Positions 8,464 to 63,161 of a stretch of DNA of 64,000 nt are shown in pieces. This DNA is from an uncultured Gammaproteobacteria bacterium. Lineage in GTDB: Bacteria > Patescibacteriota > Patescibacteriia > UBA9570 > JBBTWU01. Below the pieces are notes generated by a model. That model saw only the letters and a list, made by a program, of their open reading frames with translations, ran no database searches and had not been told where the DNA came from. Every line of letters starts with the position of its first letter. Positions within the stretch are counted from its first letter, which is position 1. The position numbers were made by a program, and so were the translations under genes. The stretch spans positions 17,436 through 81,435 of the forward strand of contig CAYIMB010000002.1 in NCBI GenBank assembly GCA_964364425.1, in the 5' to 3' direction.

Positions 8464-8469
8464 GGATCA

Positions 8470-8498
8470 ATCATAGATCGCGGATTTGACCAGTCAAG
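8470..8498 (-). promoter_or_regulatory. Conserved promoter cassette TTGACT-16-TATGAT (copy 1), near-leaderless
   Basis: 26 of 29 nt identical to 63133-63161. -10 box ends 6 nt before the ATG. Confidence 0.5.
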
Positions 8499-8528
8499 TG
8501 GTATGTAGCGCCGTCTGTGGAAAAGTCT

Positions 8529-8601
8529 ATCTACTCACAGAATCAAATCGATTTTTACGGGATTTGATGCTCTGAGCAGAGGAGGATGGTTGGCGGTTCC
8601 A
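8529..8601 (+). repeat. Direct repeat R1 (73 nt; contains AAATCGATTT and an ATCAAATC/GATTTGAT hairpin)
   Basis: Matches 9387-9460 with one substitution and a 1-nt T indel. Confidence 0.85.
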
Positions 8602-8620
8602 TGAAAGTCAAGACCTAAAA

Positions 8621-8667
8621 ACAAAAAAATGGCTAACTTTAGCCATAAAAAACTGTGCGTACGCACA
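8621..8667 (-). terminator. Tandem hairpins downstream of the minus two-gene cassette: ATGGCTAAAGTTAGCCAT + T-run and CTGTGCGTACGCACAG
   Basis: Perfect 18-bp and 16-bp palindromes. T-run on the minus strand. Confidence 0.5.
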
Positions 8668-8682
8668 GATTTTTGTCTGAGA

Positions 8683-9000
8683 TTACACGCCTCGTTCTAG
8701 AGCCACCAATTTGGCAAATGGTTGTAAGAGTTGCCTCAGTTGACTGAGTGATACCCCGTATTCGCTTGTGTTTTGGCTCAAATCTGCAATCACTTCGTAC
8801 AACCGTCGCAGTTCTTTGCGTTGTTTTGCCGGTGCTCCACCAAAGGCGGAGAAACTGGCCAACTCCAACGCTCTAAATAGGCAGCTCTGGGCATGCTGTT
8901 GATCATTTTTTGCTTGCAAAGATTCCGCCCGCGCTAACTCACTCTCAATGTTCATGAGTTGTGTGGCCAAAGAAAACGTAGCCCAACGTTCAGCCGTCAT
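8683..9000 (-). CDS. Hypothetical helical protein (105 aa), second gene of the cassette
   Basis: ORF overlapping the upstream gene by ATGA (8997-9000). Confidence 0.45.
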   Translation of the reverse strand: MTAERWATFSLATQLMNIESELARAESLQAKNDQQHAQSCLFRALELASFSAFGGAPAKQRKELRRLYEVIADLSQNTSEYGVSLSQLRQLLQPFAKLVALERGV

Positions 9001-9344
9001 AACGCCAGCCGCTCAGTAATCACGGCCGCTACTTGCTGTTGAATAGCCGGATTTTGAATCAAGGTTTGTGTATTGCCTTGTTTGGGCCTGATGTTGATCA
9101 AAGACGTAAATTCCACCTGCTCTCCTTGAGGCCGCCCCGGAAAAATATTTGCTCCCCAGACATTTTTTTGTTTTGAACCTGAATCTAACAACACTGCCTC
9201 CGCATCTGCATGCAACTCACCACCAATGGCCAGAATTTTTTTATCAATATCCACTACCACCTTGACCATATCGCCGAAGGTGTCTTGAGCTAAGGCCAGA
9301 ACTTGTTCTTTTGGAAGTTTGTCGGTAACGATTTGAATTTCCAT
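8997..9344 (-). CDS. Hypothetical protein (115 aa; resembles conserved DUF-type small proteins, ...DMVKVVVDIDKKILAIGGELHADAE...)
   Basis: ORF. DUF-type family assignment is from memory only. Confidence 0.45.
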   Translation of the reverse strand: MEIQIVTDKLPKEQVLALAQDTFGDMVKVVVDIDKKILAIGGELHADAEAVLLDSGSKQKNVWGANIFPGRPQGEQVEFTSLINIRPKQGNTQTLIQNPAIQQQVAAVITERLAL

Positions 9345-9364
9345 GATTCCACTCTAGCAAAAAA

Positions 9365-9378
9365 GTGTGCACGTGCAC
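9365..9378. promoter_or_regulatory. TGTGCACGTGCACA palindrome upstream of the minus two-gene cassette
   Basis: Perfect palindrome. Related to CTGTGC-N4-GCACAG at 8652 and 49511. Confidence 0.4.
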
Positions 9379-9386
9379 AGGTGTAG

Positions 9387-9460
9387 TTCTACTCACAGAA
9401 TCAAATCGATTTTTACGGGATTTGATGCTCTGAGCAGAGGAGGATGGTTGGCGGTCCCAT
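9387..9460 (+). repeat. Direct repeat R2 (74 nt)
   Basis: See R1. Confidence 0.85.
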
Positions 9461-9476
9461 CACTCCCCGGAAGGTA

Positions 9477-10229
9477 CTACCGAACGGCCGTCCAGACCCC
9501 CATGTCGTCGCCGAAGGGCACGGCCAGGCCCACGTAGATCCGGCACGTGTCGCCGGAGCCGCTGCTGCTGGTCTTCTCGTAGAGGGTGACCGTGTGGTCG
9601 TCCGACGTGACGGTGAAGCCGCCGCAGTCGTCCGACCAGTTGGCGCCGGAAGACCACTCGGCCTGGATGTCCACCCACGAGTGGTCGCTCAGGTCCGTGG
9701 TGGACGGGCTGAACATCAGGGTGTCCGTGGACGCGGACACGCTGGCCGACGCGGAGCCGCCGGACCCGTACCAGGCCCAGATGGTGGCGGGGTAGGTGAG
9801 GCCGCCGCTTGCGTCGCGGGTGACCACAATCCTGAGGACCGTGGTAGCGCTGTCGCCCGTGTCCACGACCGCGGTGTCGGTCACGGAGGTGTCCGCGGTG
9901 TCGCCGGTGCCGTCGCAGTCGGTGTCCACGCCGTCGGTCGGATCCTCGGTCGCGCCGGGGTTCACCGTGGCGTCGCGGTCCGCGCAGTCGCCGCCGAACG
10001 GGGAGTACCCGCGGGGGCGCCGGGTGGCCCAGAGGTCGGAGCCGGGCGCGCCGTAGCCGTCGCGGTCGCCGTCCCACCAGTAGTGGGTGATGACGATCCG
10101 GCTGGTACGGGACAGCGCGGTGTTGCGGACTTCCATGGTCTCGGCGCGGTCGTTGGCGGGGGCCTTGGTCTCTACGACCGGGGCGGTGGAGCGGTCACAG
10201 GCCGCCAGAATCAGAAGCAGGGACGACAT
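9477..10229 (-). CDS. GC-rich lipoprotein with Asp-rich MopE-like putative metal-binding repeats
   Basis: Signal peptide plus lipobox LAAC. Motif DCADRD..VNPGATE..DG.DTDCDG. Foreign-looking GC-rich codon usage. Confidence 0.6.
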   Translation of the reverse strand: MSSLLLILAACDRSTAPVVETKAPANDRAETMEVRNTALSRTSRIVITHYWWDGDRDGYGAPGSDLWATRRPRGYSPFGGDCADRDATVNPGATEDPTDGVDTDCDGTGDTADTSVTDTAVVDTGDSATTVLRIVVTRDASGGLTYPATIWAWYGSGGSASASVSASTDTLMFSPSTTDLSDHSWVDIQAEWSSGANWSDDCGGFTVTSDDHTVTLYEKTSSSGSGDTCRIYVGLAVPFGDDMGVWTAVR

Positions 10230-10463
10230 GGGGTTCTCCCGGAGAATGAGTTTGGCCCTGAAGATGGCACCGAACTCAAGTGAAGGTCATTTCAAGCTGC
10301 GGTTGGCGTTTCTTAGGTACGTGTGAAACCTCCCCAAAAGCACTCAACACCCTTAGGGCAGGGCCAGCAAAAATACATGACAATCGAACCCTTGTCAATA
10401 ATGGGCCTTAATGCCAAAAACACTCAAAATTGGCTTGTCCTAAGGAAATCCACCCCAGTAGAC

Positions 10464-10491
10464 TTTACAAACTAAAAAATGTTGTTATAAT
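10464..10491 (+). promoter_or_regulatory. Putative tuf promoter TTTACA-16-TATAAT
   Basis: Hexamers read directly, about 60 nt upstream of the tuf ATG. Confidence 0.45.
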
Positions 10492-10550
10492 CAGCTTTGT
10501 GTTTCGAGATAATCGAAATTATTTTTACTTAATTCCTAAAGGGAACCTCA

Positions 10551-11741
10551 ATGGCTGACAAGTTTGACCGCTCAAAACCGCACGTCAACGTGGGTACCAT
10601 TGGTCACGTTGACCATGGAAAAACCACCACCACAGCTGCTATTTTAGCTGTGCTTAACGCTGTCGGCGGTAAGGCTCAACAGAAATCTGTTGACCAAATA
10701 GACGCTGCTCCAGAAGAAAAAGCACGTGGTATTACTATCAATACCGCTCACGTGGAGTATGAGACTGAAAAACGTCACTATGCTCACGTGGACTGTCCAG
10801 GTCACGCTGACTATGTGAAGAACATGATTACCGGTGCCGCCCAGATGGATGGGGCCATTTTAGTTGTGTCCGCCGCCGACGGTCCTATGCCTCAAACCCG
10901 TGAACACATCCTCTTGGCTCGCCAAGTCGGAGTGCCTTACATTGTGGTGTTCTTGAACAAAGTTGACCAAGTAGACGACCCAGAGTTGTTGGATTTAGTG
11001 GAAGTGGAAATTCGCGACTTGCTCAAGAAATATGAATTCCCAGGTGATGAAACACCAATGATCCGAGGGAGTGCCTTGAAAGCCTTGGAAAATCCAAAAG
11101 ATTCAGCGGCCAACAAGTGTATCTTGGACCTCATGAACGCCTTGGATACCTATATTCCAGAGCCAAAACGTGACGTAGACAAGCCTTTCTTAATGCCAAT
11201 TGAGGACATCTTCTCTATTGAAGGTCGTGGCACAGTGGTCACCGGACGGATTGAACGTGGCATGATCAAACTCAACGAAGAAGTGGAAATTGTGGGTTTG
11301 ACTCCAACCGCTAAAACAGTCGTGACCGGTATTGAAATGTTCAACAAACAGCTGGACGAAGGTCGTGCCGGTGATAACGCTGGTGTGTTGTTGCGTGGTA
11401 CCAAGAAAGAAGAAGTTCAACGTGGACAAGTCTTGGCAAAGACCGGAACCATCACTCCTCACACTGAATTTGAGACAGAAGTATATATTCTGTCCAAAGA
11501 AGAAGGCGGCCGTCACACTCCATTCCTAAAAGGCTATAAACCTCAATTCTACATGCGGACCACTGATGTCACAGGTGAGGTGATATTGCCAGAAGGAACT
11601 GAAATGGTGATGCCAGGTGACACCATGAAGCTCAGCGTTAAGTTGATTGCCCCAGTCGCCATGGAAGAACAACAACGCTTCGCCATCCGTGAGGGTGGTC
11701 ACACCGTAGGCGCCGGAGTTATTACTAAGATTCTCAAATAA
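10551..11741 (+). CDS. tuf: Elongation factor Tu
   Basis: GHVDHGKTT and DCPGHADY motifs. 396 aa. Confidence 0.95.
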
Positions 11742-11757
11742 CATAAGAACACTATAG

Positions 11758-11796
11758 CTTCGCCCCCGGTAGGGCAGAGAAAACCCGGGGGCGAAG
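11758..11796 (+). terminator. 12-bp GC hairpin after tuf (CTTCGCCCCCGG...CCGGGGGCGAAG), weak U-tract
   Basis: Perfect inverted repeat read from sequence. Confidence 0.4.
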
Positions 11797-11812
11797 TAGC
11801 ACTTTCAACACC

Positions 11813-12172
11813 ATGACCACTAAGACAGTCAAGAAGCCAACTGAAGTCAATGGAAATGAGGAGCCAAAGTCTCGTATTCGCGTGAAAATTCGCGCTTACG
11901 ACTCCAAGATCATTGATCAGTCCACCAAGACTATTATAGAAACGGCTTTACGCAGCGGAGCCACTATTGCAGGTCCAGTGCCGTTGCCTACAGAAAAGCA
12001 CCGCTACACTGTGCTCAAATCGACCTTTGTGCATAAGAACGCACGGGATCAGTTTGAAATGCGGGTACATAAGCGCTTGATTGATATAGTCAACCCAAAC
12101 GCCAAGACCATTGATGACCTGTCTCACCTGAACCTTCCCTCAGGTGTTGACGTGGAAATGAAAATGGTATAA
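11813..12172 (+). CDS. rpsJ: 30S ribosomal protein S10
   Basis: S10 homology. Confidence 0.9.
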   Translation: MTTKTVKKPTEVNGNEEPKSRIRVKIRAYDSKIIDQSTKTIIETALRSGATIAGPVPLPTEKHRYTVLKSTFVHKNARDQFEMRVHKRLIDIVNPNAKTIDDLSHLNLPSGVDVEMKMV

Positions 12173-12307
12173 TCTCCGTCTACTTCAGTCTGGTCCGGGA
12201 CCGGTGGTGCGGATCTAAGGGCTCTCAGCCCAAGGAAATCACCCACATGCCCAAAGCCAGAAAGGACAAATAATTACATATAAACCCAAACCATACCCCA
12301 AAAATAG

Positions 12308-12359
12308 CGGTGATCTACGTATATCAAACCATTGGCGTATGTAGACCACCGTTTTTCTT
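12308..12359 (+). terminator. Attenuator-like hairpin + GTTTTTCTTT, 10 nt upstream of rplC
   Basis: 13-bp stem with one mismatch followed by a T-run, in the 196-nt rpsJ-rplC spacer. Confidence 0.35.
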
Positions 12360-12368
12360 TACACCACT

Positions 12369-12986
12369 ATGAAAGGACTGATTGGCGAAAAATTGGACAT
12401 GACCCAGATCTTTGCGGAAGACGGCAATGCCTATGCCGTGACCCGTATTCAAGTTGGTCCATGTGTGGTGGCTCAGGTCAAAAACAAAGACAAAGATGGG
12501 TATACCGCTGTGCAGGTGGCTTGGGGGAACAGCAAAAACGTGTCAAAACCAAGAGCAGGGCAAACAAAAGACCTGAACGCTAATCGTGTTCTGCGTGAAT
12601 TTCGATTTGACGCAGACGACAAATCCTTTGGTGAAATTAAACGCGGTGACACTTGGACCGCTGAATTGTTTAAAGCGGGTGATGTGGTAGACGTGGTGGC
12701 CACTTCAAAAGGTAAAGGTTTTGCCGGTGTGATGAAACGTCACAACTTTCGGGGTGGGGCTGCTACTCATGGCCAACGGCATTCAGCTCGTGAACCTGGG
12801 TCTATTGCTTCTAAACGCCAAGGTCCAGTGGCTAAAGGGCAACGTATGGCAGGGCATATGGGCGTAGACCGCGTGACCATTAAAAATCTGAAAGTGATTC
12901 AAGTAGATGCAGCATCAAACGTGGTGTATGTCCTTGGATCAGTTCCTGGTGCCAGACACAGCGTAGTGCAAATTACTGCAGCCTAA
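12369..12986 (+). CDS. rplC: 50S ribosomal protein L3
   Basis: L3 homology. Confidence 0.9.
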   Translation: MKGLIGEKLDMTQIFAEDGNAYAVTRIQVGPCVVAQVKNKDKDGYTAVQVAWGNSKNVSKPRAGQTKDLNANRVLREFRFDADDKSFGEIKRGDTWTAELFKAGDVVDVVATSKGKGFAGVMKRHNFRGGAATHGQRHSAREPGSIASKRQGPVAKGQRMAGHMGVDRVTIKNLKVIQVDAASNVVYVLGSVPGARHSVVQITAA

Positions 12987-12990
12987 ACTT

Positions 12991-13623
12991 ATGGCAACAC
13001 TTACTGTATTCAATTTAGCTGGAAAAGAAACAGGCAAAGTGGAAGCTTCTGATAAAGTGTTTGGTGTCAAACCAAACAAAGACTTGTTGTATCAAGTGGT
13101 GTTGTGGTACCAAAACCAACGCCGCAAACCGTATGCTCATACAAAAACAAAAGGTGAGGTGCGTGGTGGTGGAGCCAAACCATGGGCCCAAAAGGGGACT
13201 GGTCGGGCCAGACACGGGTCTATCCGCGGTCCACAATGGCGCAAGGGTGGTGTTGTCCACGGTCCACGCAAAGAACGTGACTACACTTCCTCTTTATTGC
13301 CAGTGAAAATGCGGCGCAAAGCGTTGGCCATGTCCTTGTCAGACAAACTTTCCTCAGGAAATTTGGTGGTCGTAGATGATTTGAAACTTCCAGAGTTGAA
13401 AACCAAAGCTTTACTTCAGATTTTGGGTGCTCTCCCGGTGAAACATCACTCAGTCTTATTCGCTACTTCAAAGAAAGACGCAGTGGTAGAGAAAGCAGCC
13501 CGCAACTTGCCTAAAATAGACGTCTCAGTCGCCACTTCTTTAAATGCAGAGCAAGTCTTGCAAAAGAAGGTCTTGGTGTTGGATACTGCTGGTGTTGAAG
13601 CCTTAGTCAAACAACTTTCTTAA
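12991..13623 (+). CDS. rplD: 50S ribosomal protein L4
   Basis: L4 homology. Confidence 0.9.
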   Translation: MATLTVFNLAGKETGKVEASDKVFGVKPNKDLLYQVVLWYQNQRRKPYAHTKTKGEVRGGGAKPWAQKGTGRARHGSIRGPQWRKGGVVHGPRKERDYTSSLLPVKMRRKALAMSLSDKLSSGNLVVVDDLKLPELKTKALLQILGALPVKHHSVLFATSKKDAVVEKAARNLPKIDVSVATSLNAEQVLQKKVLVLDTAGVEALVKQLS

Positions 13624-13627
13624 TCAT

Positions 13628-14023
13628 ATGGCTATCAATTTTTGGAAGAGAAACAAGAAACCAGAGGTAGAAACTCCAGAGGAAACAAAGGAGAGAGCAG
13701 CTACCGCCGCTCCGGCCAAAGGAACACCAAAGGCAGCCTCTTCCACCGGCGACAGCAAAAATGCTCCTCAAGTGTTACTGCGTCCAATGTTGACTGAAAA
13801 GTCCACTCGGGCCGGGGTGTATTATTTCCAGATTCCAATTTCTGCCAACCGAGCTGAAGTGAAGAAGGCGGTGAAATCTGTATACGGTGTAACTCCAGAA
13901 AAAGTAAACATCATTAACCGCTTAGGCAAGAAAGTGACTTTTGGCGGACGTGGCGGATCTAGGTCTGACTGGAAGCGCGCCATTGTGATGCTCAAAAAAG
14001 GTGAATCAATCTCTGTAGAATAA
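13628..14023 (+). CDS. rplW: 50S ribosomal protein L23 (N-terminal ~40 aa extension)
   Basis: L23 core at the C-terminus. Position in operon. Confidence 0.85.
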   Translation: MAINFWKRNKKPEVETPEETKERAATAAPAKGTPKAASSTGDSKNAPQVLLRPMLTEKSTRAGVYYFQIPISANRAEVKKAVKSVYGVTPEKVNIINRLGKKVTFGGRGGSRSDWKRAIVMLKKGESISVE

Positions 14024-14025
14024 GT

Positions 14026-14877: not shown

Positions 14878-14881
14878 GCAT

Positions 14882-15253: not shown

Positions 15254-15256
15254 TCT

Positions 15257-15619: not shown

Positions 15620-15624
15620 CCACT

Positions 15625-16419: not shown

Positions 16420-16424
16420 CACCT

Positions 16425-30991: not shown

Positions 30992-31072
30992 AAGAGTGAC
31001 GGAAGCGGGGTCTGCGAAGCAGGGTGATTGAAGCTCCCGTATGAGCAGACCCCCGCTGAGTCACTATTTGGT
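30992..31072 (+). ncRNA. Candidate structured RNA/structured repeat, copy B (homologous to 3186-3268)
   Basis: See copy A. Lies between the ferredoxin stop and the TTGCAA-16-TATGTT box (31076-31103). Confidence 0.4.
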
Positions 31073-31111
31073 AATTTGCAAATCGGACTAAATGTGGTAT
31101 GTTCTTTGAGC

Positions 31112-32884
31112 ATGAAACCAAATCATTTGCGTTGGAAAATTGGCGGACAGGCCGGTTACGGCATCATGTCTATAGGTCAAACTATCAGCCGGGCGTTTAG
31201 CCGCGGCGGTTTTTTTGTGGTGGGGTATCCGGAGTATCCTTCCTTGATTCGTGGCGGACACAACACCACGGCCGTACGTATTTCTGAGGACCCAGTGTTT
31301 TCTGTTGACCACAAAGTTGAAGTCTTAGTTGCTTTAAATAAAGAAACAGTTGAGGTGGACTTACCCGAGGTGATTCCAGGTGGTGCAGTGATTTACGACC
31401 CAAGTGACTATACAGAAGATCCAATTAAATTACGTAGTGATGTGTTGTGGGTAGCTATACCAATGACGCAAATTGTGAAAGAACATACAGGTGAGCGCGT
31501 GATGCGGAATATGATTGCTACTGGTGCGACTATGGGTTTGGTGCACTACCCTTTTGAACGTTTGGAAACAGCTATTCGTGAAGGGTTTGCCAAAAAGGGT
31601 GAAGAAGTGATAGCTAAAAATGTGGAGATTGCCCGAATTGGATATGAGACCGCAAAGGAAAGTGCTATTGCCGGAAAATTTCCGTTGACCATGACGCCGG
31701 TTGAAAAGCCGCGGTCACATCTGTTCTTGGGTGGAAACTCTGCTATTGCTTTGGGTGCCTTGTCCGCTGGTGTGCAATTTGTGGCTGGGTACCCCATGAC
31801 ACCTTCTTCTTCTATTTTGATGGACATGGCCAAGGTAGAACAAAGGTATGGAGTGATTTTCAAACAAACTGAAGATGAGTTAGCTGCTATGAACATGATT
31901 TGTGGCGCCGCCTTTGCCGGTGCACGTGCCTTAACCGCCACAAGTGGTGGAGGTTTTAGTTTGATGGTAGAAGCGTTGGGTATGGCCGGCATTATGGAGT
32001 TACCGGTGGTGGTAGTGGAAGGACAACGGCCAGGACCATCAACTGGATTACCTACTTGGACGTCTCAAGGCGACTTACTGTTTGTTATTTCGGCCTCTCA
32101 GGGTGAGTCCCCACGCTTGGTCTTGGCCCCAGGTGATGTCAACGAATGTTACTATGAAACAGCTAAGGTATTTAACTTAGCTGACAAGTATCAGTTGCCG
32201 GTAATTCTGTTGATGGATAAACATATTGGTGAAACGTATGTGTCTGTTGAACCATTTGATCAAAATAAAGTACAGATTGAACGAGGACAACTGCTCAGTC
32301 CGGAACAGGCCTCCAAAATGATGCAGGACAAAGGCTGGACACAGTTTAAGCGGCATGAAGTCACGGATAGTGGAGTTTCTCCGCGGGTGATTCCGGGAAC
32401 ACCCGGTTCTCCGTATATCTGTTCTTCATATGAACATGATGAAACCGGTTGGACTACGGAAGAATCCGACAAAGTGAAAGCGCAATATGATAAACGCATG
32501 CGTAAACTGGAAGGTCTGTTACATGACATCCCGGGTCCAACATGGTTTGGTCCGGAAGATGCGCCACTCACTGTGGTGTGTTGGGGCTCTACTCGTACTG
32601 CGGCTTTGCAGGCTATGGAAGATTTAGCCGCTGATGGAATTATGCTGAATGTTCTTCATTTTACCTACCTCTTTCCGTTTAAAGCCGCGGAAACTATTAC
32701 TGCGCTACAGAAAACCCAGCAGGTGCTAAATGTGGAAGGAAACGCCACGGCGCAATTTGCACAACTCGTACGGACACACACCGGTATAGAATTTGAACAG
32801 CATTTGCTGAAATATGATGGTCGGCCGTTTTTTCCTGAGGATATAGTAAACAAGGTGAAAGACTTGTTGATTAAATCGAAATAA
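31112..32884 (+). CDS. korA: 2-oxoacid:ferredoxin oxidoreductase alpha subunit (fused gamma-alpha)
   Basis: Homology. ATG 31112 preferred because the 31028 start overlaps the structured element. Confidence 0.8.
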   Translation: MKPNHLRWKIGGQAGYGIMSIGQTISRAFSRGGFFVVGYPEYPSLIRGGHNTTAVRISEDPVFSVDHKVEVLVALNKETVEVDLPEVIPGGAVIYDPSDYTEDPIKLRSDVLWVAIPMTQIVKEHTGERVMRNMIATGATMGLVHYPFERLETAIREGFAKKGEEVIAKNVEIARIGYETAKESAIAGKFPLTMTPVEKPRSHLFLGGNSAIALGALSAGVQFVAGYPMTPSSSILMDMAKVEQRYGVIFKQTEDELAAMNMICGAAFAGARALTATSGGGFSLMVEALGMAGIMELPVVVVEGQRPGPSTGLPTWTSQGDLLFVISASQGESPRLVLAPGDVNECYYETAKVFNLADKYQLPVILLMDKHIGETYVSVEPFDQNKVQIERGQLLSPEQASKMMQDKGWTQFKRHEVTDSGVSPRVIPGTPGSPYICSSYEHDETGWTTEESDKVKAQYDKRMRKLEGLLHDIPGPTWFGPEDAPLTVVCWGSTRTAALQAMEDLAADGIMLNVLHFTYLFPFKAAETITALQKTQQVLNVEGNATAQFAQLVRTHTGIEFEQHLLKYDGRPFFPEDIVNKVKDLLIKSK

Positions 32885-35166: not shown

Positions 35167-37761
35167 ATGGAAAAGCTGACAGGCTTAACGCAGGCTGAGG
35201 CTGAGGGCAGGTTGTTGACGTATGGAAGGAACCGGCTGCCGGAAGAAAAAAAGGATCACTGGTGGTTGATTTTGTTGCGCCAGATCAACAGCGCCATGGT
35301 GTACGTATTGTTAGTGGCTTCAGTCGTGTCATTTGCCTTGGGGGATACGGTTGACGCCGGAGTGATCTTAGCTGCGGTGATTCTGAATGTGGGCGTGGGT
35401 TTTGCTCAGGAGTTTAAGGCTGAGCAGTCTTTGAATCGCCTGAAGACCCTGGTGGCAAAGATGGCCTTGGTGCTCAGACAGGGTAAGGAGAAATTGGTTA
35501 TTGCAGAAGAAATTGTTCCGGGGGATGTGTTGTTGCTCCGGGCTGGTGACCACGTGTCGGCTGATGCGCAGGTGATGTGGGCTGAGGCTTTTGAAGTTTT
35601 GGAGTCAGCGCTCACCGGTGAGTCTGAAGCCGTAGAAAAAAATACCAACCCAGTGGCTGAGACTGCCCCCCTGGGTGATAGGACCAATATGCTGTTTGCC
35701 GGCACAAGCGTAGTGAATGGACAGGGGAGGGCGCTAGTTACGGCTACGGGCGCTCAGACTGAACTAGGTAAGATTGCCAGCGCTTTACGTGAAACTTCTG
35801 AACGTCCAACTCCGTTGCAAAAACAGTTAAATCGATTTTCCCGCTTCTTGGCCGCCGTGATTGGGTTGTTAACCCTAGTTTTGTTTATTGTTGGCATAGT
35901 GGTTGGCCGGCCGTTGATAGAAACATTTACTTTAGCCGTAGCTATTGCCGTCAGCGCTTTGCCTGAAGGGTTGATTATAGGAGTCACGGTTATTTTAGCC
36001 ATAGGCATGAAGCGTATCTTGCAACACAAGGGCTTGGTACGCCGACTAGCTTCAGCTGAGACGCTTGGTTCCGTGACCGTGATTTGTACAGATAAAACCG
36101 GAACATTGACTGAAGGGAAAATGCGCGTAGACCATTGGGTTACTTGGGATCATGCCCTAAAGTTTCACCGTGAACATCCGGAGAAAGAGCTAGCTGAACT
36201 GTTCATGGTTATCACCATTGGTTTGCTCAATAATGATGCCAAGGTATTAAACCCTGAAGAAGAAGCGGAACATTGGGAAATTACTGGTAACTTAACTGAG
36301 CGGGCGTTATTGTTTGCCGGAGCAACGCTTGGGCTAGATCACCAGAAATTACAGGAGGAACATCCACGCGTGCATGCCGTCCCGTTCAACTCCACCAGTA
36401 AAATTATGGCTACGCTCCATACTACACCGGAGCATAAACGGAAGTTGTACGTCAAAGGAGCGCCGGAGCGAGTGTTGGACATGTGCAGCAATATCTATGT
36501 GAATGGAAAGTCAGTGGTGATGACCAAACAGCATAGAACACGTTTGACGGAAGATTTTTCCAACATGAGCATGCAAGGGTTGCGCGTGTTGGCCTTGGCT
36601 TATGCAGACCTACCTAAATCCGTTGAAAAGGTCACAGATGAAACTTTTGCTGATTTGGTGTTTGCCGGATTTTTAGGCATTAAAGACGGCTTACGTCCAG
36701 AAGCAAAATCCGCTCTGCAAGCGTGTGAAAAAGCTGGAATTACAGTCAAAATGATCACCGGAGACCACAGACTCACCGCTCAGGCCATAGCCCAAGAGCT
36801 AGGACTTCCCGCCGGCCAATCCCAGATCATTGACGGGGCTGAACTGGCTCAACTGAGTGAACCAAATTTGGTCAAACGAATTTTAGGTATTTCAGTCTTT
36901 GCCCGCGTCTCTCCGCAAGATAAGTTTCGGATTGTGAAAGCTTTGCAAAAGGCCGGCCAGGTGGTGGCCATGACCGGTGATGGCGTGAATGACGCTCCGG
37001 CGCTGAAAGCTTCTGATATAGGCGTGGCCTTGGGCAGCGGAACGGACGTAGCTAAAGATGCGGCTGATTTGATTATTTTGGATGATAATTTTCAAACTAT
37101 TGTCACCGCCGTCAGAGAAGGTCGGGTGATTTTTGATAACATCAAAAAGTCAGTCTTATATTTGGTCTCAGCTTCCTTTAGTGAAATTGTATTAGTCGCT
37201 TTGTCTATTCTGGTTGGACTTCCAGTCCCTTTAACAGCGGTTCAAATTTTATGGATTAACTTGGTGACGGATACCTTCCCTAATTTAGCCCTGACTCAAG
37301 AACCGCAGGAAAGCCAAGTCATGAATGAACCACCTCGTTCACCCAAAACTCGGATTGTGAACAAAGACTTAGCCAAAATGACTGCCCTTGTCTCCGGTGT
37401 GAGTGGTTTATCCTGCCTAGGTCTGTTTGTGCTGGCACTGTATAGTAGTGATTCAACTGATTACGCCCGCACCATTACCTTCGCTGCATTAAGTCTGGAA
37501 TCTTTACTCTTTGCGTTTTCCGTGAAGTCGCTCAGACTGCCCATTTGGAAATCGTCCTTTTTTAATAATAAGAGCCTACTGCTAGCTGTCGGTGTGGGCG
37601 TTCTCATTATTGTTTTGGCCACCACACTTGTTCCGTTGCAACGCATCCTGCATACTACCTCCATAGGAGCAGTGGAATGGGGGATGATTGCGGGTATTTC
37701 AATTCTAGCCCTAGGTTTAATAGAGGCACTCAAAATGATTTTTATTAAAAGACGCACATGA
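35167..37761 (+). CDS. Cation-transporting P-type ATPase (P2-type, Ca/Mg-like)
   Basis: CTDKTGTLT and MTGDGVNDAPAL. ATG 35167. Confidence 0.85.
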   Translation: MEKLTGLTQAEAEGRLLTYGRNRLPEEKKDHWWLILLRQINSAMVYVLLVASVVSFALGDTVDAGVILAAVILNVGVGFAQEFKAEQSLNRLKTLVAKMALVLRQGKEKLVIAEEIVPGDVLLLRAGDHVSADAQVMWAEAFEVLESALTGESEAVEKNTNPVAETAPLGDRTNMLFAGTSVVNGQGRALVTATGAQTELGKIASALRETSERPTPLQKQLNRFSRFLAAVIGLLTLVLFIVGIVVGRPLIETFTLAVAIAVSALPEGLIIGVTVILAIGMKRILQHKGLVRRLASAETLGSVTVICTDKTGTLTEGKMRVDHWVTWDHALKFHREHPEKELAELFMVITIGLLNNDAKVLNPEEEAEHWEITGNLTERALLFAGATLGLDHQKLQEEHPRVHAVPFNSTSKIMATLHTTPEHKRKLYVKGAPERVLDMCSNIYVNGKSVVMTKQHRTRLTEDFSNMSMQGLRVLALAYADLPKSVEKVTDETFADLVFAGFLGIKDGLRPEAKSALQACEKAGITVKMITGDHRLTAQAIAQELGLPAGQSQIIDGAELAQLSEPNLVKRILGISVFARVSPQDKFRIVKALQKAGQVVAMTGDGVNDAPALKASDIGVALGSGTDVAKDAADLIILDDNFQTIVTAVREGRVIFDNIKKSVLYLVSASFSEIVLVALSILVGLPVPLTAVQILWINLVTDTFPNLALTQEPQESQVMNEPPRSPKTRIVNKDLAKMTALVSGVSGLSCLGLFVLALYSSDSTDYARTITFAALSLESLLFAFSVKSLRLPIWKSSFFNNKSLLLAVGVGVLIIVLATTLVPLQRILHTTSIGAVEWGMIAGISILALGLIEALKMIFIKRRT

Positions 37762-39298: not shown

Positions 39299-39308
39299 AA
39301 ATCGATTT
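39299..39308. repeat. AAATCGATTT palindrome (TAAATCGATTTA) between cassette A and asnS
   Basis: Exact palindrome. Confidence 0.9.
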
Positions 39309-51670: not shown

Positions 51671-51697
51671 TTAGCAGTCTCAAGCAGAGAGTGCTAA
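51671..51697 (+). promoter_or_regulatory. CIRCE operator TTAGCAGTC-N9-GAGTGCTAA
   Basis: 8/9 + 9/9 match to the HrcA-binding inverted repeat TTAGCACTC-N9-GAGTGCTAA. Confidence 0.8.
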
Positions 51698-55382: not shown

Positions 55383-55391
55383 ACAGTATTA

Positions 55392-55423: not shown

Positions 55424-55439
55424 TCTAGGTCAAACTAAA

Positions 55440-57005: not shown

Positions 57006-57304
57006 CTACATAGCCAATGACCGTTCAGGTAGGGGATGGTTGGTAAACTTTTTTGGTTTCGCAATTTGTATTTCTCCGTTGGGTGTAAACTCCACCGTTT
57101 CCGCCAGCATGATTTTGAAGGCAGCATAGCAGGCGAGTTTGAATCTGGGCTCTGATACGTCAGCTATTCGTAGTTTGATCCGGGATTCAGCTGCCAGGAC
57201 CTTCTGGTGCAAGGCCTCATATTTGGTTGGGTCGTATCTTGAGTACCAGTAAGCCCGGGTATAGTAGCATATTCTTCTGGCATATGGTATAATTTTTCCT
57301 GTCT

Positions 57305-57994
57305 ATGGAGGACGCATCAACACATTCCTTTGTGGCAGTTGAATATAAGATTGCTGTCAAGGAAAAAAAGAACAAGAAACAGGAGCAAACGACTGGTACC
57401 ACAGATACTACAGCTACTGATACTACTGTCACCACCACTGATCCGGCCGCGGTGGCCACGCAAGCTCTCTCCGCCGCTCCCCCAGCGGTTCAACAATATA
57501 TCAACTTCCAAAATCCCACTTGGGACACCTTTTTGTTTGTCTTTTTCTTGGTGGCCGCACTCCTTTACGGCGTTTCCCTGGGTCGCGACCGGATCATAGT
57601 CATCTTGATTAGTATCTACATGGCCTTGGCTGTAGTGCAGGCCATTCCTGATTTTGTCCTCAGCATTACCATCAATCAAAACTTTGCTTTTCAAATGACG
57701 GCCTTCATTGCGTTGTTTGTGGTGTTGTTTTTCTTGTTTTCACGTTCCGCTTTAATCAACACGTTGGGCGAGGGGCGTCACCGCGGCGGGATTATGGAAG
57801 TGGTGGTGTTTAGTTTCCTCCATGTGGGTTTGCTCATTTCCATTGCCATGGGTTTCTTGCCCGCAGACTTTGTCTCCAAATTTTCACCCCTCACCATAAC
57901 AATCTTCACCAACGAATGGGCCAAGCTCATTTGGATTGTAGCGCCTATAGCTGCCATGATTGTGCTGGGCAGGAGAGACGAAGACGACGACTAG
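57305..57994 (+). CDS. Membrane protein with Thr-rich N-terminal region
   Basis: TGGTATAAT extended -10 at 57283-57291. Hydrophobic ORF. Confidence 0.5.
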   Translation: MEDASTHSFVAVEYKIAVKEKKNKKQEQTTGTTDTTATDTTVTTTDPAAVATQALSAAPPAVQQYINFQNPTWDTFLFVFFLVAALLYGVSLGRDRIIVILISIYMALAVVQAIPDFVLSITINQNFAFQMTAFIALFVVLFFLFSRSALINTLGEGRHRGGIMEVVVFSFLHVGLLISIAMGFLPADFVSKFSPLTITIFTNEWAKLIWIVAPIAAMIVLGRRDEDDD

Positions 57995-59385
57995 GCTATT
58001 TTCCTCAACCGTGTTCCCTCTGGTGTATCCATAATGTTGAACCCGGTGTGTTTAATTTCATCCCGTAAGGAATCTGCCACGGCAAATCGTTTTTCAGTCC
58101 GGGCTAAGTCACGTTCTTTTACCAAACCCACCACTTTTTCAGGAATATGTTTGCGCTCTTGTCTAATCCGTTCAGCTTGGCGCGCAATATCTAACCCCAA
58201 GACCTCATCAAATTTTAACAAAGATTCAAGCTTGGCTGAATCAGGGTAATCAGATTTCACCAACTTCCACACCACCGCCAAAGCTTGTGGCATATTTAAG
58301 TCATCATTCACGGCGTCCATAAACTGTTGCTCAAATTCAGCGCAACCTATTTTTGGTTCATCCCAGTCAGCGGCCAGTTCCAACAATCGGTCATAGGCAG
58401 ATTGCGCCGCTTGCAACGCTTCCCAAGAAAAAGATAACTTACTCCGCCAGTGCGCAGAGAAGGTGAAATACCGGTAACCAAGAGGGGAGACCTGATGTTC
58501 TGCCAAGTTCTTCAAGGTAATAAACCCGCCACTACTTTTAGCCATCTTGCCACCATCCATCAGCAAAAACTCCCCATGACACCACATCTGGGCAAATGGT
58601 TTGCCAGTCGCTGTCTCACTTTGCGCAATTTCATTCGTGTGATGAATGGGCGCATGATCCACGCCACCACAGTGAATATCAAACGTCTTACCCAAATATT
58701 TCATGGCCATGGCCGAACATTCCAAATGCCATCCCGGAAAGCCAACTCCCCAAGGTGATTCCCATTCCATATCTCGCTTGCTTCCCTCTGGTGAAAATTT
58801 CCACAGCGCAAAATCCGTTGGATGCTTTTTTCCTTTGACCATGTCTACTCGCGCACCGGCCTTCAAGCCTTTGGCTTTGAGTCCCACCAACTTGCCGTAG
58901 TCTTTGACTTTGCTGGTGTCCATGTAAACTCCATCCGCAATTTTGTAGGTGACACCTTTTTTCTCTAACGCCTGAATCAGATCGATCTGCTCTTGAATAT
59001 GCTCCGTTGCGCGCACTAATTTGGAAGCCGGCAGAATATTCAACACCACTAAATCCTGTTTGAACGCCTGCGTATAAAACTCAGCCACCTCCCATGCCGT
59101 CTTGCCTTCACGCCGGGCACCCTTTTCCAGCTTATCTTCACCCTCGTCTGCATCTGAAACCAAATGCCCAACATCAGTGATGTTCATCACGTGGTTCACC
59201 TGGTAGCCATCAGCCAACAGAACACGTTTCAAAATATCTTCAAACAGAAATGTGCGGTAATTTCCAATGTGTTGAAAGTCATACACGGTTGGACCACAGG
59301 TATATAACCCCACTTGCTTGGTCTTCAGGGGGACAAATGGTTCTACTTTCCGCGTGAGTGTGTTGTACAGGTGAAGTTGGTTCAT
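57991..59385 (-). CDS. cysS: Cysteine--tRNA ligase
   Basis: HIGN and KMAKS motifs. Confidence 0.9.
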   Translation of the reverse strand: MNQLHLYNTLTRKVEPFVPLKTKQVGLYTCGPTVYDFQHIGNYRTFLFEDILKRVLLADGYQVNHVMNITDVGHLVSDADEGEDKLEKGARREGKTAWEVAEFYTQAFKQDLVVLNILPASKLVRATEHIQEQIDLIQALEKKGVTYKIADGVYMDTSKVKDYGKLVGLKAKGLKAGARVDMVKGKKHPTDFALWKFSPEGSKRDMEWESPWGVGFPGWHLECSAMAMKYLGKTFDIHCGGVDHAPIHHTNEIAQSETATGKPFAQMWCHGEFLLMDGGKMAKSSGGFITLKNLAEHQVSPLGYRYFTFSAHWRSKLSFSWEALQAAQSAYDRLLELAADWDEPKIGCAEFEQQFMDAVNDDLNMPQALAVVWKLVKSDYPDSAKLESLLKFDEVLGLDIARQAERIRQERKHIPEKVVGLVKERDLARTEKRFAVADSLRDEIKHTGFNIMDTPEGTRLRKIA

Positions 59386-59452
59386 AGGGACATTGTATCT
59401 GGGTCGGAGGCGCGTTGCAAGAAAGTCAAAAAAATGCTATATTCATAGAATC

Positions 59453-60247
59453 ATGAACGCCAACCAACCAAATATAAAACCGTTAGAGCCGGTGAGTTTT
59501 GATGATCTGGAACCGGAGGTGCTTGAAGTGCCTGCTGAGTTACCCACACCTGAAGGAGGCTCGCTCAAAGACAGAATCCTGGAGCAAGCAAAAAAAGAAG
59601 AGGCAGATGCCGCAGCCATAGAGGCGGCTAAGGAGGAGGTGACGGTGGATAAGTCACTGGATCAGCCGGTGGCTGTTCCGGCTCAACCGGAGACAGCGCC
59701 AGCCGTACCTGTTGTAGCACCTGAAACAGCGGCCCTGCCTGAAGCAGTATCGGCTGAAGCCACGCCGGCTGAAGCACCTGCCCCTCTGCCGGAATTACCC
59801 CCAGTGCCGGAACTTCCGCCTGTACCTGAGGCTGCGCCTACGGAAACCGAACAACCAAAACCAAGCAAACCACAAGCGCAAGTGCCGGCTCAACCGGTTA
59901 CACCTCCTCCTGCTGAGGCGCTGGTGCAGACTCAAACAGAGAAGACGGAGACGCGCAAGCAAATCGAATCAATTCTGCAAGAAGGGTTGGCACCCATGTT
60001 TTTACAAATGGATCAACAGGAACGGCAGGTATTTACAGCCGCAGCTAATGAGACCGCTTCCAAGTTGGAGTTGTTGGTGACACAATTTAAGGCGTCAGCC
60101 AAAGAGGTGTTGCGTTTGATCAAGGCTTGGCTGACAAAAATTCCAAAGATCAACAAGTATTTCTTGGAACAAGCAAGCAAAATAAAGACGGATGAAATTT
60201 TACTGATGCAAACGCAAAAGAAAAAGGAATCACGTTTACTTCATTAG
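59453..60247 (+). CDS. Pro/Ala-rich hypothetical protein
   Basis: ATG 59453 (MNANQPNIK). The upstream 59393 start is poor. Confidence 0.45.
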   Translation: MNANQPNIKPLEPVSFDDLEPEVLEVPAELPTPEGGSLKDRILEQAKKEEADAAAIEAAKEEVTVDKSLDQPVAVPAQPETAPAVPVVAPETAALPEAVSAEATPAEAPAPLPELPPVPELPPVPEAAPTETEQPKPSKPQAQVPAQPVTPPPAEALVQTQTEKTETRKQIESILQEGLAPMFLQMDQQERQVFTAAANETASKLELLVTQFKASAKEVLRLIKAWLTKIPKINKYFLEQASKIKTDEILLMQTQKKKESRLLH

Positions 60248-60252
60248 TAAGT

Positions 60253-62769
60253 ATGTTGTTTAACTACATCATTTACATTGCTGCCTACGTACTCAGTTCT
60301 TTTGCTGTCGTCTGGTTGGGTGTACATATTGTCCGCAAGATGTTGCGCACGCATGCTGAGAAAAGTGAGTCATTCAAGAAAATTATTTTGATGATCACTG
60401 TTCCAAAAGGGGAGAAGGCGGATGAATCTCAAAATATAGACTCCATAGACGCTATCCGTGAAAAGATTTCAGTGGCCAACACCTTTTTCTCTACTTTGGG
60501 TGGCATGAAGGCGCAAAAAGGCTGGCGGGCCTTTTGGTTTGGCCGCAACGACGACTTTAGCTTGGAGATTGTGGCAGATAAGGACCAGTTGATTTCTTTT
60601 TACGCCGCGGTGCCAAGAGCCATGCACCGCTACTTTGAACAACAGCTGCATGCTCAGTTTAAAGATGCACAAATTCATGAGGTAGAGGATTACAATATTT
60701 TTGAACCAAACGGAGTGACCGTGGCTGCAGTCTTGAGTTTAAAGCGCAAATACCTATTTCCTATCCAGACGTATGACAAGATTGAAGGGGATCCGTTGAA
60801 TGCCATTACTAACGCTCTGTCCAAGATGGAGAAGAATGAAGGCGCGGCTATTCAGTACGTTCTGCGTTCTGCTACTCCGGAATGGCACCGCACTCCGGCC
60901 CAAGTGGCGCAAACCATGCAACAAGGGAAAAAGTTAGAGCGCGCCATGAAAGAAGTGACGGGAAATATATTTACCAAAACATTTATTTTTTTAGGACGGA
61001 TGTGGGGGAAGAAGAGGAAAGCAGGTCAAGGGATTGATGCGGTGACTGAACGTGAATATCGTTTAAGTCCCATGGAAGAAGAGGTGGTAAAGTCCTTGGA
61101 AGATAAAACCTCACATGCCGGATTTAATGTGAGTATTCGTGTGGTGGTGGATGCACCAACCAAAGAGCAGGCCATGCGCAAAGCGGATAATGTTTTACAT
61201 GCCTTCACGCAGTATGCCACCTACCAATTTGGCAACAGTTTTAGTTTTTCTAAACCCAAACAGGATGCGCATGAGATAGAAAAGTTTATTTACCGCCAAT
61301 TTGATGTGAAGCACCAGATGTTGTTGAACTCCAAGGAAATGGCTTCTTTGTGGCATCCGCCGTTGCGCATTACAGAAACACCAAACATTCGTTGGCTACT
61401 GGCTAAGAAAGCCGTCCCTCCGGCTAATATGCCTAAAGACGGAATTATTTTGGGTGAAGTGGAATACCGCGGGGTCAAACAGTTGGTGCGGATTAAAGCG
61501 GAAGACAGGTTTAGACATATGTACATTATTGGTAAGTCTGGTTCCGGTAAGTCCGTGTTGCTGACTCAGATGGCCATTCAAGATATTCAGAATGGTGAAG
61601 GGGTGGCTGTGATAGATCCGCATGGAGACCTGATTGACGACATTTTGCCCCATATTCCTAAGGAGCGGGCGGATGATGTGGTTATTTTCAACCCAGCTGA
61701 TACTGATAGGCCACTGGGACTGAACATGTTGGAATTTGAAACAGACGAGCAAAAAGATTTTGCCGCCCAGGAAATGATAGCCATTTTTTACAAGTTATTT
61801 GGACAGGAGATGATTGGTCCTATGTTTGAGCATTATATGCGTAATGCCATGTTGGCTTTGATGGATGATAAGGAGGCGGGTGCAACTATTATAGAAATTC
61901 CGCGTATGTTTACGGATGAAAAATTCCGCAAAGACAAATTGAAAAAGGTACGTAACTTGATTGTGAAAAACTTTTGGGAACAAGAGTATGAGCAAAGTCA
62001 GGCCGGACAACAGGCGGCTGATATGTTGTCTTACGTTATTTCCAAGATTGGCCGTTTCCTGACTAACGACATGATGCGCAACATCATGGGCCAACAGAAA
62101 TCCGGTTTTGATTTCAAGGATGTCATGAACAACCGCAAGATCTTGTTGTGTAATTTGTCCAAAGGTACCACAGGTGAAGTGAACTCTAGCTTGTTGGGTT
62201 TGATTATTGTGAGCAAACTCCAAATGGCCGCCATGGCTCGCGCTTCCATGCCAAAATCTGAACGGAAGAACTTCTACCTATACGCTGATGAGTTCCAAAA
62301 TTTTATTACAGACTCCATTGCTACTATTTTGTCTGAAGCCCGTAAATATCGATTTTCCATGGTGATGGCTCACCAATATGTCACTCAGTTAGTGGTCAAC
62401 AATGACACTAAGGTGCGTGACGCTGTGTTTGGTAACGTTGGTACCATGATTGCTTTCCGGATTGGTGTGGAAGATGCTGAAGTGATTGCTAAGGAGTTTG
62501 CCCCGGTGTTTGACCAAAATGATGTGGTCAACGTGGAACAATTTACTGCCAACATCAAATTGTTGATAGACAACACGGCTTGTAAAGCGTTCAACATGAA
62601 GACTATCATGCCGCCACAGGGGAATCTGAAGATGGCCTCAACCTTGAAACAGTTATCTCGTCTGAAATATGGCCGTGACCGCGCTTTAGTGGAGGCTGAA
62701 ATTAAAGAACGTGCTCGTTTGGGTGAGCTAGGTGGCGGAGGACAGACCGCGCCAGATAGCTTCTTCTAA
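60253..62769 (+). CDS. Membrane-anchored P-loop ATPase, VirB4/TraC/HerA (DUF87)-like
   Basis: N-terminal TM helix. Walker A GKSGSGKS followed by VIDPHGD. 838 aa. Confidence 0.45.
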   Translation: MLFNYIIYIAAYVLSSFAVVWLGVHIVRKMLRTHAEKSESFKKIILMITVPKGEKADESQNIDSIDAIREKISVANTFFSTLGGMKAQKGWRAFWFGRNDDFSLEIVADKDQLISFYAAVPRAMHRYFEQQLHAQFKDAQIHEVEDYNIFEPNGVTVAAVLSLKRKYLFPIQTYDKIEGDPLNAITNALSKMEKNEGAAIQYVLRSATPEWHRTPAQVAQTMQQGKKLERAMKEVTGNIFTKTFIFLGRMWGKKRKAGQGIDAVTEREYRLSPMEEEVVKSLEDKTSHAGFNVSIRVVVDAPTKEQAMRKADNVLHAFTQYATYQFGNSFSFSKPKQDAHEIEKFIYRQFDVKHQMLLNSKEMASLWHPPLRITETPNIRWLLAKKAVPPANMPKDGIILGEVEYRGVKQLVRIKAEDRFRHMYIIGKSGSGKSVLLTQMAIQDIQNGEGVAVIDPHGDLIDDILPHIPKERADDVVIFNPADTDRPLGLNMLEFETDEQKDFAAQEMIAIFYKLFGQEMIGPMFEHYMRNAMLALMDDKEAGATIIEIPRMFTDEKFRKDKLKKVRNLIVKNFWEQEYEQSQAGQQAADMLSYVISKIGRFLTNDMMRNIMGQQKSGFDFKDVMNNRKILLCNLSKGTTGEVNSSLLGLIIVSKLQMAAMARASMPKSERKNFYLYADEFQNFITDSIATILSEARKYRFSMVMAHQYVTQLVVNNDTKVRDAVFGNVGTMIAFRIGVEDAEVIAKEFAPVFDQNDVVNVEQFTANIKLLIDNTACKAFNMKTIMPPQGNLKMASTLKQLSRLKYGRDRALVEAEIKERARLGELGGGGQTAPDSFF

Positions 62770-62773
62770 AGGA

Positions 62774-63124
62774 TTATTTGTTTGGTAAGACTACTTCTTC
62801 TAATTTAGTTGTTCTAGATTCCAGATTATTATAGTTGAAATGAATTGAGGCGGATTCAGCCATAAAGGTTTCATAGCTTTTAGTGACTTTATCCGCCATA
62901 CCTTGAATGATATTGATGGTTTTATCTAGTTTATCGTCCATGGTGTCAAAGCGCTCGTCATGTTCCATGAGCTTTTTGAATACAAATTCAAAGTTTTTAT
63001 TGTAATGTTTGAATTTTTGGCGAAGCTCTGAACAAAAGGTATCAAATTCATGCTTAAAAACTCCTAATTCTTGGTTTAAATATCCTTTAGTCACCAATTC
63101 ACCTTGATGTTGCTTGTTTTTCAT
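62774..63124 (-). CDS. Hypothetical AT-rich small protein
   Basis: ATG at 63124. Conserved TTGACC-16-TATGAT promoter 8 nt upstream. Confidence 0.45.
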   Translation of the reverse strand: MKNKQHQGELVTKGYLNQELGVFKHEFDTFCSELRQKFKHYNKNFEFVFKKLMEHDERFDTMDDKLDKTINIIQGMADKVTKSYETFMAESASIHFNYNNLESRTTKLEEVVLPNK

Positions 63125-63132
63125 ACACAGCA

Positions 63133-63161
63133 ATCATAGATCGCGGATTTCACAGGTCAAG
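63133..63161 (-). promoter_or_regulatory. Conserved promoter cassette (copy 2) TTGACC-16-TATGAT
   Basis: 26/29 identity with 8470-8498. Confidence 0.5.

Follow-up and report, generated by a model that had tools for sequence, protein, structure and literature searches.

A conserved promoter-like module directly ahead of two unrelated small genes in a Patescibacteria genome

Why should two genes with unrelated products begin behind nearly the same stretch of non-coding DNA? The question is raised by a 64-kb stretch of DNA (the window, i.e., the whole stretch that was analysed) from a metagenome-assembled genome of Patescibacteria (candidate phyla radiation, CPR) from Hainich groundwater (GCA_038062635.1; ENA ERZ1292631). 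The window carries the str/S10/spc ribosomal operons, the genes for EF-Tu and EF-G, an hrcA-grpE-hsp20-dnaK-dnaJ cluster and a gene for a TraD/VirD4-like ATPase. On its minus strand lie two small genes, here called P1 and P2, each of which is directly preceded by a copy of a ~62-nucleotide (nt) module. Patescibacteria are uncultured bacteria with tiny genomes and few recognisable regulators, and to our knowledge almost nothing is known about their transcriptional regulation. From comparative sequence evidence, we consider it probable that the module is a sigma-70-type promoter with conserved operator or activator sites, giving leaderless mRNAs.

Two copies of one module

An earlier note on this DNA had pointed to two 29-mers, at 8470–8498 and 63133–63161, that are equal at 26 of 29 positions, and this was confirmed. 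A search allowing up to three mismatches found exactly these two sites in the window (0.00 expected from 100 dinucleotide shuffles), and both sites contain the exact 18-mer AAATCCGCGATCTATGAT, which the rest of the window does not have. Alignment of the flanks extended the similarity beyond the 29-mer to ~62 nt on the minus strand (8464–8525 and 63125–63189). Over the whole unit, copy 1 and copy 2 are identical at 46 of 61 positions (75%) with one 2-nt indel; the 31-nt core alone is 90% identical. A second common block, TCCACAGnnGGCGCT, hereafter block A, lies at 8507–8521 and 63172–63186, 8–10 nt upstream of CTTGAC.

The module thus reads, in order, block A, 8–10 nt, CTTGAC(T/C), a 16-nt spacer, TATGAT, 6 nt (8 nt in window copy 2) and ATG. 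The minus-strand arrangement that had been noted, TTGAC(T/C) and TATGAT 16 nt apart with the ATG 6–8 nt further on, was recovered as TTGACT–16 nt–TATGAT–6 nt–ATG in copy 1 and TTGACC–16 nt–TATGAT–8 nt–ATG in copy 2, and a sigma-70 consensus scan gave 10 of 12 matches at both sites. The sole sequence between the -10 hexamer and the ATG is TGATCC (copy 1) or TGCTGTGT (copy 2), with no Shine–Dalgarno (SD) sequence and no space for a ribosome-binding site. A position weight matrix (PWM) was built from eight aligned module copies. The features of the two loci, all on the minus strand, are as follows.

8464–8525, minus strand: module copy 1, the whole unit upstream of P1 (alignments; PWM score 48.8 bits)
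8507–8521, minus strand: block A of copy 1, TCCACAGACGGCGCT, spanning about -58 to -44 relative to the ATG; possible binding site of a transcription factor
8492–8497, minus strand: -35 hexamer TTGACT, also forming the left arm of a dyad, TTGAC-N2-GTCAA (consensus scan and lineage alignment)
8476–8491, minus strand: 16-nt spacer GGTCAAATCCGCGATC, in which G, ATCC and GATC are conserved; possible operator (lineage alignments)
8470–8475, minus strand: -10 hexamer TATGAT of copy 1 (consensus scan and lineage alignment)
8173–8463, minus strand: P1, a 96-amino-acid (aa) orphan, predicted helical; ATG at 8461–8463, 6 nt past the -10 hexamer
8653–8668 and 8629–8646, minus strand: a tandem pair of hairpins resembling intrinsic terminators, behind the 105-aa gene that lies upstream and insulating P1 from read-through
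63125–63189, minus strand: module copy 2, the whole unit upstream of P2 (alignments; PWM score 46.4 bits)
63172–63186, minus strand: block A of copy 2, TCCACAGGGGGCGCT
63155–63160, minus strand: -35 hexamer TTGACC of copy 2 (consensus scan and lineage alignment)
63139–63154, minus strand: 16-nt spacer TGTGAAATCCGCGATC of copy 2 (lineage alignment)
63133–63138, minus strand: -10 hexamer TATGAT of copy 2 (consensus scan and lineage alignment)
62774–63124, minus strand: P2, a 116-aa orphan, predicted to form one long helix; ATG at 63122–63124, 8 nt past the -10 hexamer (6 nt in relatives)

Shuffled sequences scored at most 14 bits with the same PWM. The module is not the generic promoter of this genome, because two sites reach 46–49 bits and the next-best match elsewhere in the 64 kb reaches 5.7 bits. 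The window together with 8 kb to its left (L027) and ~1 kb to its right (L012) covers ~73 kb of this genome, and neither PWM nor mismatch search found a third copy, even a weaker one, in these ~73 kb or in the contigs of relatives. The sub-motifs TTGACNNGTCAA and CAGACGGCGC gave no additional intergenic sites.

Wider databases were also searched. The exact 18-mer gave eight single matches among GTDB species representatives, all in unrelated taxa (Prevotella, Paenibacillus, Planctomycetaceae and others) and at approximately the estimated chance number, so neither the source genome nor a close relative is matched in that set. A degenerate core pattern with 18 specified bases matched three times in JGI metagenomes; these matches are attributed to chance because block A and the ATG are missing in all three. 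The same pattern had no match in IMG/VR.

P1, P2 and the conservation of the module

The coordinates of the two genes had been given correctly in the earlier note, and its statement that they are unrelated was upheld: BLASTP between P1 and P2 gave E = 0.1 over 14 residues, and profile–profile comparison (hhalign) gave a probability of 0.1%. Both genes had also been called AT-rich, which applies to P2 (32.5% GC) but not to P1 (45.0%, compared with 47.9% for the window). No paralogy was found between the divergent neighbour of P2 and the convergent neighbour of P1. Among 5.8 billion clustered proteins, relatives were confined to five clusters for P1 and four for P2, and an exhaustive profile search with P1 returned just three representative clusters. 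Pfam had nothing above threshold for either protein (sub-threshold SWIRM and DUF1664 only), PHROGs had no match to either, and a PDB sequence search with P1 found no match. By these searches, P1 and P2 are lineage-restricted orphans. AlphaFold models P2 as one long helix of 107 residues (predicted local distance difference test (pLDDT) score, 78.7); the model of P1 has four helices at low confidence and, with a pLDDT of 55.7, is too poor for a fold search.

One explanation of the shared module would be that P1 and P2 are ancient paralogues, i.e., that one duplication copied a gene along with its promoter and the coding sequences have since become unrecognisable as relatives, so that the module would be inherited rather than recruited by unrelated genes. 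Both are small, all-helical orphans of equally narrow distribution, and their C-termini are vaguely similar (KIEHPQTVPLF and KLEEVVLPNK). Nevertheless, neither the BLASTP nor the profile–profile comparison above detected homology, and the predicted architectures are unlike, one 107-residue helix against a low-confidence four-helix model. We regard common descent as rather unlikely; it would concern the origin of the pair only and is compatible with a promoter function.

The distance from the module to the start codon depends on the correct choice of start. The start of P1 is fixed because an in-frame TGA lies two codons upstream of the ATG and changes among the orthologues are of the synonymous type from codon 2 onward (mostly at third positions); in addition, the orthologues do not keep the Met that follows. 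P2 has a possible in-frame TTG start in the window, but this codon falls out of frame in relatives, and no other Met lies ahead of residue 54.

We compared the contigs of every homologue found, i.e., seven lineages for P1 (L013–L017, L025 and L026) and four for P2 (L018–L021). The module stands directly ahead of the start codon of the orthologue at all 11 loci. Synteny is conserved: a DUF5674 gene and the 105-aa gene always come before P1, which has a convergent ~290-aa gene on its other side. P2 always faces a convergent TraD-like gene, and at the loci with recovered upstream sequence an orthologous gene diverges from it. Across the 11 copies, the parts of the module are kept as follows.

Block A: C[A/C]CAG[A/G][C/G]GG[A/C]GC[C/T], kept in all P1 and P2 lineages that reach that far
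Block A to -35 hexamer: 9 nt at P1 loci, 10–11 nt at P2 loci
-35 hexamer: TTGAC[T/C], with TTGAC invariant (TGAC in the 5'-truncated L017 copy)
Spacer: 16 nt in 11 of 11 copies, with G and ATCC invariant and GATC near-invariant
-10 hexamer: TATG[A/C]T
-10 hexamer to ATG: 6 nt in 10 of 11 copies, 8 nt just in the P2 copy of the window (GT slip)
Start codon: ATG in all copies

Identity of the module between orthologous loci was 76–90%. For comparison, codon positions 1 and 2 of the downstream genes were 78–91% identical, third positions were 43–75% identical, and the remainder of the P2 intergenic region was 35–36% identical; the binomial tail P for the module against third positions ranged from 4e-3 to 2e-7. 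Measured against its surroundings in this manner, the module is under purifying selection at both loci across lineages. P1 modules and P2 modules are 70–85% identical to each other, and each locus has bases of its own: every P1 copy has TTGACT, and of the four P2 copies three have TTGACC and one, that of L018, has TTGACT. Because these locus-specific bases and the locus-specific spacing of block A are kept, the likeness of the P1 and P2 modules reflects long-term parallel constraint on an old pair rather than recent copying or gene conversion.

At the P2 loci of three relatives (L019, at 2265–2320, L020 and L021), the main block A (CAGACGGCGCT) is preceded at a distance of ~30 nt by a second, partial one (GACGGCGCAC), and the main block A is situated inside an inverted repeat, CCCCAG-N6-CTGGGG. 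The window has no such feature. The doubled block A in these lineages may represent two binding sites.

Conservation at fixed positions also bears on whether the unit belongs to a mobile or generic repeat, such as a miniature transposable element with inverted repeats (MITE), a transposon end or a recombination site, that came to lie near two gene starts by chance. The surroundings are rich in repeats: a 73-nt repeat abuts copy 1, and palindromes of the sequence AAATCGATTT are enriched. However, there are just two copies of the module in the ~73 kb, no terminal inverted repeats or target duplications accompany them, the position relative to the ATG is base-exact at syntenic loci in 11 lineages, orthologous loci with the module lack the 73-nt repeat, and IMG/VR holds no match. 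We consider chance placement of such a repeat very improbable. The earlier note had itself stated that membership of the 29-mer in a larger generic repeat unrelated to gene starts would refute its reading; the unit is indeed larger, yet every copy of it keeps a fixed position at the start codon.

The module can be compared in this regard with Putative Mobile Promoters, which were defined by a threshold of at least 50 nt at at least 80% identity within one genome and were screened between -150 and -50 (Matus-Garcia, Nijveen & van Passel 2012; PMC3488235). As in those cases, homologous upstream sequence precedes non-homologous coding sequences in one genome, and the upstream neighbours of P1 and P2 are non-homologous as well (E = 26). 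In contrast, the identity of 46/61 (75%) is below the 80% threshold, the module extends from -62 to -1 and not over the range sampled there, and the pair is old and conserved, not recently mobilised.

A predicted promoter for leaderless transcripts

The -35 hexamers TTGACT and TTGACC each agree with TTGACA at five of six positions, as expected of a sigma-70-type -35 element. TATGAT agrees with TATAAT at five of six positions, including the characteristic A and T at positions 2 and 6, and the spacer measures 16 nt in all 11 copies, within the 16–18 nt typical of such promoters. The surroundings of both copies also call for a promoter. P1 requires a promoter of its own because the two terminator-like hairpins separate the upstream gene from copy 1, and the 185-nt intergenic region that holds copy 2 must contain a promoter because the genes on either side of it diverge. 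We infer promoter activity from these features and consider it likely that the module is a promoter.

In the mechanism that we propose, CTTGAC(T/C), the fixed 16-nt spacer and TATGAT would form the core of a promoter of the housekeeping class (sigma-70/sigma-A type). A -10 hexamer that occupies -12 to -7 places +1 on the A of the ATG, which is the geometry of a leaderless mRNA. RNA polymerase would start at, or within ~2 nt of, the A of the start codon, and ribosomes would load at the 5'-terminal AUG of the resulting leaderless mRNA. That the transcripts are leaderless seems to us reasonably likely, though less so than that the module is a promoter. The bases conserved beyond the needs of a promoter are most likely binding sites of one shared predicted transcription factor. 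Candidate contacts are block A, centred near -51; the G and ATCC of the spacer; TTGAC-N2-GTCAA, a partial dyad that covers the -35 hexamer; and (R)ATC-N3-GATC. The predicted factor could repress by occlusion at the spacer and -35 hexamer or activate from about -51; with either sign, P1 and P2 would form a small regulon. We put the chances of such a dedicated regulator at about even. The module most likely marks a small co-regulated gene set, as judged from its conservation ahead of both genes.

The same bases might instead be read by RNA polymerase itself, i.e., the module might be a promoter for an alternative sigma factor or a sequence-demanding holoenzyme that contacts block A and the spacer. 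Such a promoter would agree with a conservation that spans nearly all of -58 to -7 rather than a discrete palindrome, with dyads that are imperfect, and with a motif that differs from other promoter-like sites in the window. On the other hand, TTGAC, TATGAT and a 16-nt spacer are canonical housekeeping signals, from which known alternative-sigma motifs differ. In addition, the distance from block A to the -35 hexamer varies between 9 and 11 nt, and block A thus fits a separate protein contact better than a contact of the holoenzyme. An alternative sigma factor is unlikely in our view, and a housekeeping promoter with a separate binding protein is preferred.

The spacer had been interpreted in the earlier note as a split version of the palindrome AAATCGAT. 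This did not hold across lineages. Four of the 11 copies have CGATC or AGATC in place of the AAATC half, the right half is GATCT, and the half-sites stand 3 nt apart as against 0 in the palindrome, a misfit for one dimeric binder. The bases of the spacer that are conserved across lineages are ATCC and mostly GATC, not the AAATC/GATTT half-sites of the AAATCGATTT family of this genome.

Several points weigh against a regulated, leaderless promoter. The term regulon rests on two genes, because only two copies occur in ~73 kb, and no candidate regulator emerged from the analysis. The dyads are imperfect and are not kept in every lineage; L013 and L016 have GACCG or GACAG in place of the right arm GTCAA, and L026 has lost the second GATC. 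Copy 2 of the window has 8 nt instead of 6 nt before the ATG, and a canonical start there would leave a leader of ~2 nt. The missing SD sequence is no evidence for leaderless status because the genome is generally without SD sequences; as this makes its absence uninformative, the argument for leaderless transcripts is one of geometry alone. Finally, read-through RNA carrying the module is possible because P1 in relatives lies only 66 nt behind a co-directional gene.

Read-through would suit an explanation in which the conserved unit acts as RNA, i.e., as a 5'-untranslated or intercistronic element (a protein-binding element, processing site or translational operator) with transcription starting further upstream and the hexamers being coincidental. 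Copy 2 of the window alone indeed folds better than its shuffles (z = -3.1). However, copy 1 does not stand out (z = -0.95) and the two window copies fold differently; the RNAalifold consensus is -1.1 kcal/mol with none of eight predicted pairs covarying; and Rfam gives no match at the gathering score or at E ≤ 1. Moreover, copy 1 comes after the two terminator-like hairpins, the intergenic region that holds copy 2 is a divergent one, and the invariant bases coincide exactly with the -35 and -10 hexamers at a fixed 16-nt spacing. We rejected an RNA element on the grounds of no consensus fold, covariation or Rfam match, and consider this explanation improbable. The near-leaderless promoter cassette shared by two genes that had been proposed in the earlier note is thus in line with all the evidence that can be computed (hexamers, fixed spacing, conservation, terminators, no shared RNA structure and no homology between the two protein families), whereas three sub-claims failed or had to be weakened.

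SD sequences are lacking throughout the window: e.g., between 12369 and 26000, ribosomal-protein genes and others have no GGAGG. The starts of ribosomal-protein and other genes are preceded by an A/C-rich context, TAA(A/C)C(A/C)(C/T)T-ATG. On this evidence, translation initiation in the host appears to be independent of SD sequences.

Leaderless mRNAs transcribed from canonical sigma-70/sigma-A promoters are frequent in Actinobacteria and Deinococcus. In D. deserti, 60% of mRNAs are leaderless (PMC6300522). The module resembles leaderless-gene promoters in its -35/-10 pair at 16 nt, its -10 hexamer ending 6 nt before the ATG, the lack of room for a ribosome-binding site and the small products. 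It differs in that it is conserved over ~55 nt, far past the hexamers, and that its host is a member of Patescibacteria without SD sequences genome-wide. The same geometry was not seen at the other window genes inspected, which were not scanned systematically. A search of the literature on promoters and leaderless genes of the CPR yielded nothing specific on such motifs.

The module also resembles operators embedded in the promoters of a regulon, such as the controlling inverted repeat of chaperone expression (CIRCE) bound by HrcA: the same non-coding motif precedes non-homologous genes, overlaps the core promoter and is under selection across species. Unlike CIRCE/HrcA, the module has an unrelated sequence, no clean palindrome, only two known targets and a predicted regulator. 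The RDRM/DdrO system of Deinococcus, in which the operator lies in the promoters of leaderless stress genes, is another example of such embedded operators. The CIRCE inverted repeat TTAGCACTC-N9-GAGTGCTAA has its sole match in the window at 51671–51697, upstream of hrcA, and none in the module. This site reads TTAGCAGTC-N9-GAGTGCTAA with one mismatch and stands directly upstream of a short (235-aa) hrcA, which heads the cluster hrcA-grpE-hsp20-dnaK-(141-aa open reading frame, ORF)-dnaJ. Heat-shock control of the module via the nearby dnaK operon was considered and rejected, as that operon has its own CIRCE/HrcA, the sequence of which is unrelated to the module. The module is an ordinary kind of promoter–operator element; the sequence motif itself is new.

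A more far-reaching possibility is that the module is the recognition unit of a novel, CPR-specific regulator, or a methylation-sensitive switch, either of which would coordinate the leaderless expression of small coiled-coil orphans. The idea of a methylation switch arises from the clustered (R)ATC-N3-GATC and, in most P1 loci, a third GATC flanking the -10 hexamer, and a possible tie to the episymbiotic lifestyle is suggested by the synteny of P2 with a TraD/VirD4-like coupling ATPase. We regard this as speculative and rather unlikely.

Neighbouring repeats and the meaning of the module

The window contains further repeats and unusual features. The window has 8 copies of the 10-nt palindrome AAATCGATTT, where 0.11 would be expected, and most of them are near the end or the start of a gene; shorter versions of it are found ahead of several start codons, and it is possibly a protein-binding or terminator-associated signal. 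It is this frequent even though TCGA is strongly avoided in the window (observed/expected 0.27); the corresponding ratio for AATCGATT is 7.9. The palindromes are located at the following positions.

1975–1984, 4408–4417, 5038–5047, 8159–8168, 8545–8554, 9403–9412, 35829–35838 and 39299–39308: AAATCGATTT

The 73-nt direct repeat next to copy 1 (8530–8602 and 9388–9460, identical at 72 of 73 positions) flanks the pair formed by the DUF5674 gene and the 105-aa gene. On the minus strand it contains a strong, extended hairpin, ATCAAATC-N11-GATTTGAT (-23.2 kcal/mol, z = -3.4), and includes AAATCGATTT. Because it is absent from the orthologous loci of relatives, it represents a recent insertion or duplication specific to this genome. 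A 61-nt GC-rich repeat, 85% identical between 3188–3248 and 30992–31052, overlaps the 5' ends of two non-ATG ORFs (3220–3732, GTG; 31028–32884, TTG) and includes a hairpin-like GGGTCCGC...GCGGGCCC. Its first copy belongs to an unusual insertion between rpsG (S7) and fusA (EF-G), which has three ORFs with no Pfam match.

The ~290-aa proteins form a paralogous orphan family with genes at 236–1099, 1068–1976 and 7294–8160, and more members lie to the left of the window in L027. They have a common 3' end, CCGTTACCGGACAGACCTC then AAATCGAT, at 198–229, 1070–1101, 1947–1978 and 8131–8162, and one member is the conserved convergent neighbour of P1. On the minus strand, 9477–10229 encodes a MopE-like putative metal-binding lipoprotein (Pfam PF11617) in a GC-rich (~60%) island, the composition of which differs from that of the neighbouring genes; a long spurious ORF (9444–10283, plus strand) lies opposite this gene.

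The significance of the module lies in a 62-nt non-coding sequence that is held as tightly as codon positions 1 and 2, before two unrelated, lineage-specific genes. It predicts exact transcription starts, with leaderless mRNAs, and provides both a motif for finding the remaining members of the putative regulon in complete genomes and a bait for its predicted binding protein. As the host dispenses with SD sequences, the choice of start codons by its ribosomes, whether on leaderless mRNAs or on others, becomes an approachable question. If a CPR-specific regulator or a methylation switch did act on the module, Patescibacteria would have a first transcription-factor regulon that is defined, or a first promoter under an epigenetic switch. 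As a promoter–operator arrangement of this kind is ordinary, what is gained is local knowledge rather than a new principle, and the module would offer a rare concrete handle on the initiation of transcription and translation in the CPR.

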